Positions 39,398 to 43,212 are shown, numbered from the stretch's first letter. The stretch is DNA of 64,000 nucleotides from a virus (IMGVR_UViG_3300014866_000001:4377-68376), one strand, 5' to 3'. Numbers and translations: made by a program. Notes: generated by a model from the sequence alone, not told the origin.

Positions 39398-40576
39398 TCA
39401 GTTCGCCTTCACTTCCGGTGGTCGCTTAAACTCCAGAATTGGTACAGCGCCAACCGCATCCTTAAAAGTTATCTGGTTGCTTTCTGGAGGAATCGTCACG
39501 TTCTCACACAGCGCCATCTGGATACCAGATTTGCAGCGGCGTTTCTCGAAGAGGTCTTCCAGTTGGTTCCCCTCTATCAAAATGTCCTCCGCATCCTGAA
39601 GGTAGAGCTGTGACATGACGTCGGCTTTGCCATCTTTGCGCAGACCGTTGTTGTAGATGCGATTATTGCTAATCGTGATGTATTCACAGCGGTCGTTTAA
39701 CCCGCTCACCTGCAGGCCGTGAGCGTCATTACCACGGATAGAGTTTTTTGAGATAACCCCGTACTTACAGAATCGCGAGACCGTGATACCGATCTCGCCG
39801 CCGTAATAGGCCTCGTTCCCTTCCACCAAGAAGTTGGAGCAGTTGTGCAAGACGATTAAATCCCCGCTGCCCTTGTTTGCTGCTGGATTTGCAGGATTGT
39901 ACGGCTGGCTTTCGCCTCGCATGATGTTGTACAGGATTCGCAGTGACACATTCCGCCGGTTCATGTTGTCCGGATCGCTGAGCACAACGATACCTTGTCT
40001 TGAACCTTTACCAGCCAGAGGGTTGATGCAGCTGTTCCTGTACAGCTCAATGTCCCGCGTGCCAGCCGCACCACTCCAAATGTGGTAAGCGTACTGAAGC
40101 CAGTTTTGGATCTCACAGTACGCAATGCGGGACCGCAGCATACCGCTGCCAAACCTGAAACCGTATTGAGTGCCGCTGCCTTGGCAATCTTCCACAGCAA
40201 CACCTTTGCTGTTCTCAAAATTGATCAAGTAGTTCGTCGTGGGAAAAGTTCCTAGCAGTTCGCAGCGGGAGATTTCGACATCCTCACAAGCGCCACTATT
40301 CGAGAGTAGCGTGTGGGCCACTGCCTGGATCGCAAGACCGTGAATAGTGACGTGTTTGGCCGCGTTCAGCACGATTGCATTTTGGATAAACTTCGGCGCG
40401 AGTAGTGTCGCGCCAGTACCCCACAAATTACATGGCTTCTTAATGGTCAGTTGCTTGCTGAATCGGAATGTGCGTTCAGGAAACTCCGCACCACCAGCGT
40501 CAATGGCGGCCTGGATCGCGACGGTGTCGTCATCAACACCGTTGCCCTTCGCGCCGTAGTCTAAAATGGATTTCAT
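39398..40576 (-). CDS. Right-handed beta-helix, pectate-lyase-superfamily protein (possible depolymerase)
   Basis: SILDYGAKGNGVDDDTVAIQAAID followed by parallel beta-helix repeats. Confidence 0.85.
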   Translation of the reverse strand: MKSILDYGAKGNGVDDDTVAIQAAIDAGGAEFPERTFRFSKQLTIKKPCNLWGTGATLLAPKFIQNAIVLNAAKHVTIHGLAIQAVAHTLLSNSGACEDVEISRCELLGTFPTTNYLINFENSKGVAVEDCQGSGTQYGFRFGSGMLRSRIAYCEIQNWLQYAYHIWSGAAGTRDIELYRNSCINPLAGKGSRQGIVVLSDPDNMNRRNVSLRILYNIMRGESQPYNPANPAANKGSGDLIVLHNCSNFLVEGNEAYYGGEIGITVSRFCKYGVISKNSIRGNDAHGLQVSGLNDRCEYITISNNRIYNNGLRKDGKADVMSQLYLQDAEDILIEGNQLEDLFEKRRCKSGIQMALCENVTIPPESNQITFKDAVGAVPILEFKRPPEVKAN

Positions 40577-41246: not shown

Positions 41247-41801
41247 TTAAAATCCAAAAAGTTTACGCAGCCAGTCGAGAAATGGAGTTGGCCGCTTGGG
41301 TGGCTTAGGAATTGGAGTCGGAGTCGGAGTCGGTTCTGGAATCGGCGGACCTGGAACCGGATCAGGGTTGTCAGCCAATCCGCCCGTGAATTCGCCAGCC
41401 CACCAAGTGCCACCCTGCGCGGGAGTCATGCCGCTTTTCCATGCCCTCGACAAGCCGAACCCAACTTTAGACGAGTTGCTAGTGAGCCATCTGTAATGAC
41501 CTGGTGACCTCATCCATCGGTCGATTACTGACGCGGCAAATGCTAGATGATTACCATCCCACGCAATGATTTCTTCACCACCTCCATGTTGGTGAAATCC
41601 CTCGAACCGCATGTAGTTCGTCCACGCCTGAGCGCGACGACAGTACGACTCGTCCAACTGTTGACGCGGCAACCCGAGCTGCGCCCGTCGGCGCATCGCC
41701 TCTTCGTAGATTGCAATGATCTCAGGATTGTCAACGAGTCTTGTCATCACTTCGCCATAAAAGGTTTGGAGAACGTTGGCTCGTTGCTGCGGCAATTTCA
41801 T
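41247..41801 (-). CDS. CAP/SCP domain protein with Pro/Thr linker
   Basis: EEIIAW...IDRWMRSPGHYRWL...VGFG. Confidence 0.8.
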   Translation of the reverse strand: MKLPQQRANVLQTFYGEVMTRLVDNPEIIAIYEEAMRRRAQLGLPRQQLDESYCRRAQAWTNYMRFEGFHQHGGGEEIIAWDGNHLAFAASVIDRWMRSPGHYRWLTSNSSKVGFGLSRAWKSGMTPAQGGTWWAGEFTGGLADNPDPVPGPPIPEPTPTPTPIPKPPKRPTPFLDWLRKLFGF

Positions 41802-41915
41802 GTTCGAACGAAAAAAGGCGCGACATTCCAAAAGGAAATTCGCGCCGTCTTAGCGTCAGGTGGTTTCAACCCACACAGAATATCGGCTATACGCTGATGT
41901 TGGTCAAGTGAAAGA

Positions 41916-42513: not shown

Positions 42514-43198
42514 TTACTGAATCTTTTCGATGTTGCCCTTCAGGTATTCCGTCAAAGGCATTTTCTTATTCGTCCGGTGATTGGTGACAACACCGTGGCA
42601 CACCTGAACCGTCCGGATCTTGTCCCCGCGCTCACCGCACCCAATCTGCTCCCGCCGATTAACATTGGTTTTGTGATGGTTATCGGATCGCTGCTTGTCC
42701 AGAACGCGTTGCCGCAGAACCGCTAGGGCTTTGACGCGGTTTCGTTTCTGGCTCCGCTCATCTTGGCATTGAGCCTCGATTCCAGTTGGTCGATGAATAG
42801 CAACGCAGGCCGTTTCGTTCTTCTGGCGATTTTGGCCACCAGCACCGACCGACGCCACGCAATATCGAAAGGACACGTCGGACTCCCGGAACTCAGTTCG
42901 TGCTTCGCCACCAGTCACGGCAACGGTGATCGTTGAGCTTTGGCGTCTTCCGCTACGTTCAGTGGGCGGAATCCGCTGCCATCGGTGCCCGCCCGATTCC
43001 GGCGTCATTAAGGCACGGCATCCATTGCCAGTCAGCCGCACAGAACAGAATCCAGGTCGCTTATCCATGATGACCCACTCAAAGACAGCTCCGTTTCCAA
43101 ACCTTCGTGTAGATGTCCAGTTGGTCCGGTACCAATAGCTTGGCATCGTCGCCGCCTTCAGCGGCTCGAATTTCAACAACACATGTTTCTGGTTTCAT
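42514..43198 (-). CDS. Compact class-1 peptide release factor-like protein, expressed via a +1 frameshift at CTT-TGA
   Basis: ATG 43198 with AAGGAG SD; 39 codons (EIRAAEGGDDA) to CTT TGA at 43084-43079; +1 frame carries QRIPPTER and GAGGQN. Confidence 0.85.
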
Positions 43199-43212
43199 AA
43201 TCAAACTCCTTT

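Follow-up and report, generated by a model that had tools for sequence, protein, structure and literature searches.

The gene analysed here lies at positions 42,514 to 43,198 of a 64,000-nucleotide (nt) stretch of viral DNA (IMGVR_UViG_3300014866_000001:4377-68376, hereafter the window, with positions counted from its first letter). It is predicted to encode a 227-amino-acid (aa) release factor (RF) of the RF1 type that consists of domains 2-4 only, and, judged by its reading frames, the full-length factor can be translated only if the ribosome shifts by +1 at CUU-UGA once 39 codons have been read. The overall explanation which we favour, with moderate confidence, is a frameshift-gated RF1-type factor with termination-capacity feedback.

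All coordinates of the gene refer to the minus strand, and its features are collected in Table 1. The frame-0 peptide of 39 residues, MKPETCVVEIRAAEGGDDAK...KRSCL, ends at the TGA 43081-43079, the last codons of this frame reading AAA CGG AGC TGT CTT TGA G, while the +1 frame is open from 43080 to the TAA at 42516-42514; decoding of CTT-T as one step would join the two into the fused 227-aa protein (P0001). An earlier inspection of the window from its letters (hereafter the sequence-only reading) had listed a Shine-Dalgarno (SD) sequence, an ATG at 43198, 39 codons including EIRAAEGGDDA, the codons from CGG to the shift site and a GGAG in the register of the internal SD of prfB, and all of these are present. 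Its further proposal, a ~227-aa +1 product with PPT and GGQ but without domain 1, is borne out by translation and by the match to Pfam PCRF at positions 100-194, and it was also right that the gene is absent from the open reading frame (ORF) track. In a plain ORF list it is represented only by a 45-aa ORF and a 222-aa GTG ORF, the first 40 residues of the latter being out-of-frame junk, and such a track must therefore overlook it. A single copy of the pattern GGAG-N4-CTTTGA is present in the 64-kb window, where 0.11 would be expected by chance, and no RNA structure stands out around the shift site (z +1.4).

Table 1. Features of the RF1-type gene, in window positions
Feature	Positions	Strand	Remark
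Initiation Shine-Dalgarno AGGAG	43206..43210	-	read from sequence; spacer to ATG of 7 nt
ATG start codon	43198-43196	-	read from sequence
Frame-0 segment, ATG + 39 sense codons + TGA	43079..43198	-	first beta-strand of domain 2 and helix alpha-5; begins VEIRAAEGGDDAKLL
EIRAAEGGDDA, tip of helix alpha-5	43142..43174	-	aligns with T. thermophilus RF1 from residue 106
SD-like stimulator CGGAGCTGT	43085..43093	-	GGAG core 43092-43089; family consensus CGGAGGGGT; profile of 103 unique relatives
Shift site CTT TGA G	43078..43084	-	CTT 43084-43082, TGA 43081-43079, +4 G 43078
+1-frame segment, 188 codons + TAA	42514..43080	-	rest of domain 2/4, domain 3 with GGQ, C-terminal part of domain 4
PPT tripeptide 'anticodon', residues 77-79	42961..42969	-	PxT type, RF1 specificity; aligns with T. 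thermophilus RF1 P-V-T
GGQ peptidyl-tRNA hydrolysis motif, residues 120-122	42832..42840	-	invariant in all alignments

The two frames together read as one continuous RF1-type protein. The 227-aa product matches the Pfam families PCRF (E 3.6e-15, only profile positions 100-194 of 194) and RF-1 (E 5.1e-20), and the frame-0 segment alone matches PCRF at profile positions 100-129. The NCBIfam RF1 profile NF001859 scores 170.5 bits over positions 105-334 of 347 and runs through the frame junction; the profiles of RF2, PrfH and ArfB give 93, 63.2 and 16.7 bits, respectively, in agreement with the RF1-type homology claimed in the sequence-only reading. None of the equivalog cut-offs is reached, neither those for RF1 (NF001859, 170.5 vs 400; TIGR00019, 165.4 vs 423) nor those for PrfH (TIGR03072, 63.2 vs 166.65) and ArfB (16.7 vs 100). 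In the alignment to residues 106-318 of T. thermophilus RF1 no insertion or deletion falls at the junction, and L39/E40 stand opposite F and E. The product begins 7 residues ahead of the domain-2 block, without the N-terminal domain 1; nor is a domain 1 found upstream of the window gene, where the ORF is unrelated. All members of the family described below share this truncation. Two kinds of candidates for a domain 1 were rejected, namely the long open frames upstream of the gene in 11 loci of high GC content and an ORF of 349 aa in one relative (L017).

All stop-reading parts are kept, namely EIRAAEGGDDA, Gln74 (in GGHRWQRIPPT), PPT77-79 and GGQ120-122 (in GAGGQ), and E9, R11, E14, G15, G16 and D18 of the alpha-5 region are invariant in 45 relatives. 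The alpha-5 tip of RF1 and RF2 reads the first base (U) of stop codons. An AlphaFold2 model of P0001 (mdb6e1cdd849d), built on these 45 relatives, has a mean predicted local distance difference test (pLDDT) score of 90.8, rising to 97-98 at residues 31-50 across the junction, and places a strand at residues 5-14 and a helix at 16-36 in the N-terminal part. Superposed with Foldseek, it resembles ribosome-bound RF1 most (template modelling (TM) score 0.89, 2.6 Å), followed by RF2 (0.80-0.83) and PrfH (0.70). AlphaFold2 gives the extended, ribosome-bound conformation; the compact crystal forms of free RF1 and RF2 reach a TM score of only 0.54-0.58. An RF1 deprived of domain 1 is still active in peptide release in vitro and in the living cell, but is unable to stimulate RF3 (PMC1586002). 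We consider it probable that the window product is an active UAA/UAG release factor.

The same data bear on the idea of a split gene, in which the locus would specify a 39-aa peptide and an internally started C-terminal protein, either associating with each other or with the C-terminal part alone being active. Gene callers do call the +1 ORF by itself, an SD-like stretch lies just upstream, and an in-frame ATG is available at 43068-43066, five codons past the site. However, this ATG is 20 nt from the GGAG, M44 is not conserved in relatives, and the TTG within CTTTGA is in the wrong frame. Moreover, such a product would lose the strand and the alpha-5 helix reading the first stop base, which are highly conserved and packed at the high pLDDT just mentioned, and both the ~226-aa in-frame relatives and an in-frame allele of the gene (L177, see below) are single chains. 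A split gene is thus very improbable.

To see whether the frame change is programmed or marks a broken gene, 240 loci were taken from viral, prokaryote-genome and metagenome collections, and their N-terminal block and body were located by regular expressions and then by profile hidden Markov models. Relatives fall into two classes: the closest ones (56-70% identity) cover ~80% of the query, because gene callers took only their +1 ORF, and distant ones of ~226 aa cover all of it. The metagenome relatives among the matches listed are all of at most 50% identity. Counting the window, 116 loci have the +1 offset, and wherever a start was found and the junction read, CTT precedes the frame-0 stop (115/115 loci). 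This stop lies 96 nt past the N motif in 110 of the 112 loci with a clean motif pair and 99 nt past it in the other 2, and CTT-T is invariant among all 103 unique sequences. Positions -12 to -4 of the latter read C-G-G-A-G-G-(G/T)-G-T (consensus cGGAGGggt). An SD run of at least 4 nt is present in 55/66 genes of the TGA type and 28/33 of the TAG type (83-85%), in contrast to 3/11 plain in-frame relatives and 3/22 that use TGA as Trp. Furthermore, of the 37 shifted genes with Arg-Arg-Gly, 36 use the codons CGG-AGG-GGN for it, and in-frame relatives have CGG-CGT or CGG-CGG. As this SD-like spelling is kept in shifted but not in in-frame genes, the SD-like stretch is no by-product of coding. In some loci the +1 frame is closed by a stop merely 8 nt ahead of the site, which leaves no alternative place for the frame change.

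A natural counterpart is provided by L177 (366-1043), an in-frame allele nested among the shifted genes, which reads CGG AGG TGT CTT GAC, that is, the cassette minus one T. It keeps the SD-like stretch and the CTT, and its product is precisely the one predicted. Evidence for the window's own clade comes from proteins: in all 15 truly split called proteins that span the site, F precedes D/E, S or N, which are the residues that xxC-TTT-GA/AG/AA would give, and all 11 window-clade members (56-70% identity) with a called ORF through the site are among them. Public gene calls of the family (P0003-P0028 and others) are N-terminally wrong; with 137-223 aa and without the alpha-5 block, they start at an upstream out-of-frame codon or at an internal Met of the +1 ORF.

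The sequence-only reading had named homologs that are in-frame at this site as the mark of an error or pseudogene, and had asked about conservation of a prfB-style CTT-TGA in homologs; the site turned out to be conserved, in favour of a programmed event. Plain in-frame relatives of ~226 aa do exist, and the window cassette is a weak version of the consensus, which is what one could invoke for a one-base insertion that split an ordinary phage RF1-like gene and left no full product. But 115 independent loci from different samples carry the same break, always as CTT plus a stop, whereas a random insertion or deletion would not put a stop exactly at the frame change. In addition, the upstream codon choice is under selection to be SD-like, invariant residues stand on either side of the junction with both halves under protein-level conservation, and a systematic assembly artefact is implausible given the varied sources and sequence contexts. 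A broken gene is hence scarcely credible, and comparison of the loci rules out a sequencing error or pseudogene as the origin of the pattern. It is very likely that a real programmed +1 frameshift yields the fused protein.

The history of the cassette was followed on a FastTree phylogeny of 166 sequences, in which the truncated genes form a clade apart from cellular RF1 (100% local support). The shifted genes stand in one subgroup of 115 rows, with a few plain in-frame and TGA=Trp genes nested within, and the tree counts at least 8 gains or losses of the shift. A single origin of the shift is likely from this topology, the deep branches of which are weakly supported. The frame-0 stop of the 115 loci is TGA in 75 (65%), TAG in 36 (31%) and TAA in 4 (3.5%). 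The tree requires at least 23 switches of stop type, 8-10 of them even when only well-supported branches are counted, and some separate near-identical sisters. Within the family, stop type shows no relation to GC content (p = 0.24), to the stops used by neighbouring genes (p > 0.3) or to the stop that ends the gene itself (p = 0.24), and it follows neither the GGQ context nor the alpha-5 tip nor the tripeptide, for which PPN and PPS occur beside PPT in both types. Since it is free to vary and tracks none of these features, UGA-specific sensing is not a conserved property, and the notion in the sequence-only reading of a specific sensor of limiting UGA termination fails across the family. That reading had also excluded a simple feedback, since the gene's own UGA should be out of reach for a PxT factor; this point is fair for the window gene, whereas in about one third of relatives, those with UAG, the cassette would be just such a loop.

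We propose the following mechanism. A ribosome arriving at CUU-UGA would wait for a release factor. Fast termination would release a useless 39-aa peptide; when termination is slow, the SD-like stretch would pair with 16S rRNA and aid the slip, peptidyl-tRNA-Leu would move from CUU to UUU, T 43081 would be skipped, and decoding would continue at GAG 43080. Because slipping competes with termination, the yield should rise when the relevant release factor is scarce, so that output of the full factor would climb as the termination capacity of the infected cell drops. That the phage exploits this dependence on RF supply is our inference. The product would then read UAA and UAG and release the peptide without RF3-assisted recycling, because domain 1 is missing. 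In CUU-UAG relatives, the site would be recognised by the product as well as by host RF1, and RF1-type activity would thus be under direct negative feedback. With CUU-UGA, as in the window and 65% of relatives, the loop would be indirect and host RF2 the sensed factor: extra RF1-type activity may take over UAA codons and free RF2 for UGA, which ends about half of the phage genes.

Is a feedback required at all? The main rival is a fixed attenuator, in which a real +1 shift would keep a factor that would be harmful in excess at a low, roughly constant yield with no RF sensing, any stop read by a single RF being good enough. Over-expression of RF1 or RF2 does lower the fitness of B. subtilis (PMC12421855), and the swapping of TGA and TAG at least 23 times, with no change in reading head, GC content or neighbouring stops, is readily accommodated by an attenuator. 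The same applies to the rarity of TAA, which is read by both RFs and found in only 4/115 loci, as expected if a weak stop is the sole need. TAA is a necessary single-step intermediate between TGA and TAG, yet rare, which suggests selection for a stop read by one RF alone. Conversely, CUU-stop shifting kinetically competes with RF binding, and RF dependence is consequently built in (PMC12421855); a weak ribosome-binding site would be cheaper than a five-element cassette kept in more than 100 diverged genes; and with UAG the product itself should read the site. Taken together, we regard a fixed attenuator as unlikely.

Several observations weigh against the termination-capacity feedback as laid out above. 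The labile stop type fits a device needing only a weak stop equally well. The window cassette is weaker than the family consensus, its SD-like run being GGAG (4 nt, then C) rather than GGAGG, and the base after its stop is G, as in 18/103 unique sequences, and not the C found in 75% of relatives (77/103). Conservation of the cassette in the window's own clade is deduced from called proteins rather than DNA, and a degenerate DNA pattern for the invariant peptide of this clade had 0 matches in the viral collection. The window clade has GRRQSS where RF1 has GRIHTS, so that T. thermophilus position 192 is Arg instead of Ile and position 194 Ser instead of Thr; as both residues lie in the third-base pocket, this pocket differs from that of cellular RF1 and the specificity is not certain. 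An RF1-type head should not recognise UGA, the stop of the window cassette, so that the proposed loop is indirect and purely inferred. Finally, some bacteria shift poorly on the prfB motif (PMC12421855). We regard the chances that the cassette serves termination-capacity feedback and not fixed attenuation as about even. Only tentatively do we put forward the wider proposition that an RF1 counterpart of the RF2 frameshift switch, hitherto missing, exists in phages and is used by them to gauge host termination capacity.

Less likely than the attenuator is a rescue or counter-defence role, in which the protein would act on stalled or damaged ribosomes, as do PrfH and ArfB, or shield stop codons in the A site against host toxins, with the shift serving as a stall switch. 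Domain 1 is missing as in PrfH, the third-base pocket of the clade is unlike that of cellular RF1, PPN and PPS variants of the tripeptide occur among relatives, and a copy in Archangium adjoins a 'conflict-system' glycosyltransferase. Nevertheless, the alpha-5 tip, the Gln, PxT and GGQ are conserved as in an RF1 that reads stops, the scores for PrfH (63 bits vs 167) and ArfB (17 vs 100) are far below the cut-offs, and the nearest fold is RF1 on the ribosome. Furthermore, no conserved partner gene, RtcB-like or other, was found in 121 loci, the commonest neighbour being an HNH endonuclease in 9. A ribosome-rescue factor, which the sequence-only reading had offered as one option, has no support in these results and is quite improbable.

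Regarding these surroundings, the commonest true neighbours are HNH (homing) endonucleases, in 9/121 and 5/121 loci (L170:489-1037, L191:5339-5827 and relatives), which hints that the gene sits in a frequently invaded or mobile part of phage genomes. Two apparent neighbour 'families' were rejected as antisense ORFs lying over the RF gene itself. The complete chromosome of the myxobacterium Archangium gephyra (NZ_CP102578.1, 3,540,016-3,546,667; L082) carries a CTT-TAG-C copy at L082:3004-3676, next to a GT4 'conflict-system' glycosyltransferase and a weak TIR-like match and with no obvious phage genes; this copy may be part of a defence island or of a mobile element that has degraded. Contigs of metagenome-assembled genomes of Myxococcota, Bradymonadia and Bacteroidales contain further shifted copies (L083, L085, L088, L091, L125).

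A distinct set of relatives consists of 32 truncated RF1-type viral genes of L001-L080 (L002, L005, L006, L011, L018, L023, L026, L027, L036, L041 and others) that are in one frame and carry 1-2 in-frame TGA at Trp positions, as do L107, L133, L144 and L188. A frequent position of this TGA is the conserved Gly-Trp that aligns with the Leu codon of the cassette; L007 has TAG at this Gly-Trp site, and L078 and L080 have TGA plus TAG. The 32 genes were considered as cases of readthrough, which was rejected: TGA=Trp (code 4) phages fit better, because the TGA falls at Trp positions, as it likewise does in the prfA genes of Mycoplasmoidaceae. By their codons, they look like TGA=Trp phages whose own RF1-like mRNA would need TGA decoding.

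The window belongs to a complete virus record of 68,376 bp with direct terminal repeats and a GC content of 54%. Terminase, portal, major head and tape-measure genes lie downstream of the RF1-like gene, and methyltransferase and RecT-like genes upstream. The phage uses the standard code, its genes stopping at TGA (~49%), TAG (26%) and TAA (25%), and no difference in stop usage between its early and late genes was seen. ARAGORN found no tRNA or transfer-messenger RNA in the window, and hence no suppressor tRNA, and no Rfam family reached its gathering threshold. Immediately downstream of the RF1-like gene, 41247-41831 and 39398-40576 encode a CAP/SCP-domain protein and a right-handed beta-helix (pectate-lyase-like) protein, the latter probably a tail spike or depolymerase.

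To our knowledge, the CUU-UGA +1 frameshift has been described for forty years as peculiar to RF2. In the present family, what appears to be the same device has been constructed again, here in phages, within an RF1-type gene and at a different codon, and one case in three has TAG. In 2025, a survey that covered over 12,000 genomes showed programmed frameshifting for prfB and none for prfA; among its 8,164 prfB motifs the stop is TGA in 98.6% and TAA in the remainder, never TAG, and the absence from prfA and of TAG was taken as proof that the device serves RF2 autoregulation (PMC12421855). According to PRFect, all CUU-stop sites of RECODE are prfB genes (PMC10885494), RF2 is the sole release factor listed in GeneTack, and a recoding review of 2016 called an RF1/UAG counterpart unknown. 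Papers on huge and recoded phages list phage RF1 and RF2 genes and say nothing on frameshifting or truncation. No published description of an RF1-type CUU-stop cassette was found in the searchable literature, the scope of which leaves out most subscription journals, so that absence there is no proof; the recoding signal appears to be unpublished.

If our model is correct, the CUU-UAG version would be the first natural RF1-class autoregulatory frameshift, and the window phage would read out the sufficiency of host RF2 and respond by supplying RF1-type activity. As UGA and UAG replace each other freely, it would follow that the RF1 and RF2 pools are linked via the UAA load that they share, and a stripped factor that is not recycled by RF3 may hold ribosomes at stops and bias termination to phage messages. 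Versions of one gene with UGA, UAG or UAA, in-frame or with TGA=Trp, amount to a natural experiment on what the cassette senses, for which L177 is a ready-made in-frame control, and the family lets one ask why RF2 and not cellular RF1 needs such control. Translation termination may thereby be added to the host processes that are adjusted by ordinary-sized, standard-code phages and not just by huge or recoded ones. On the practical side, the family provides an RF1 reduced to ~225 aa together with +1 switches that can be tuned, and it flags a systematic annotation error, as its genes are called as N-terminally wrong fragments, typically of ~185-220 aa.

How does this gene compare with known systems? 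Recoded phages carry RF1 (TGA-recoded Jade) or RF2 (TAG-recoded Lak and Agate) (bioRxiv 10.1101/2021.08.26.457843). These are likewise phage-borne class-I RFs thought to shift the termination balance, and the truncated RF1 clade includes the 32 viral genes with TGA at Trp; the window phage, however, has a standard code, and no mention of frameshifting or truncation is made in that paper. ArfB consists of a GGQ domain and a C-terminal tail without a codon-reading domain, which the window product possesses. PrfH is a class-I RF paralogue that also lacks domain 1 and keeps GGQ (PMC1586002), but it has an altered decoding region and the always-adjacent partner RtcB2, in contrast to the RF1 head and the missing conserved partner of the window gene. 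RF1 itself (prfA) is the best match in both sequence and fold, with domains 2-4 complete and the reading head kept, although the window product is without the ~105-aa domain 1 on the RF3/L11 side, stays below the equivalog cut-offs and has GRRQSS for GRIHTS.

The closest parallel for the switch is prfB. There, by an established mechanism, a pause at a poorly read stop and pairing of an SD-like sequence with 16S rRNA at short spacing promote the slip from CUU to UUU (PMC12421855). The cassette described here matches that of prfB part by part, in order as well as in spacing: CUU follows an SD-like purine run at a distance of ~3 nt and would occupy the P site, the stop would stand in the A site, and the slip by +1 would lead to UUU. 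Both are genes of class-I release factors, and a downstream RNA structure is neither needed there nor found here; C, which makes for a poor termination context, is the usual base after the stop in both, but the window has G. Unlike prfB, the carrier gene is of the RF1 and not the RF2 type, and its carriers are phages and mobile elements. Autoregulation by the gene's own product, as in prfB, would not apply to the window gene with its UGA and RF1-type head, but would apply to the 36 relatives with UAG. Furthermore, the shift site is at codon 40 in domain 2, aligned with the conserved Gly-Trp of cellular RF1, whereas that of prfB is at about codon 26 in domain 1. As both the gene and the site differ, the cassette is a separate instance of the device and not one inherited from prfB.

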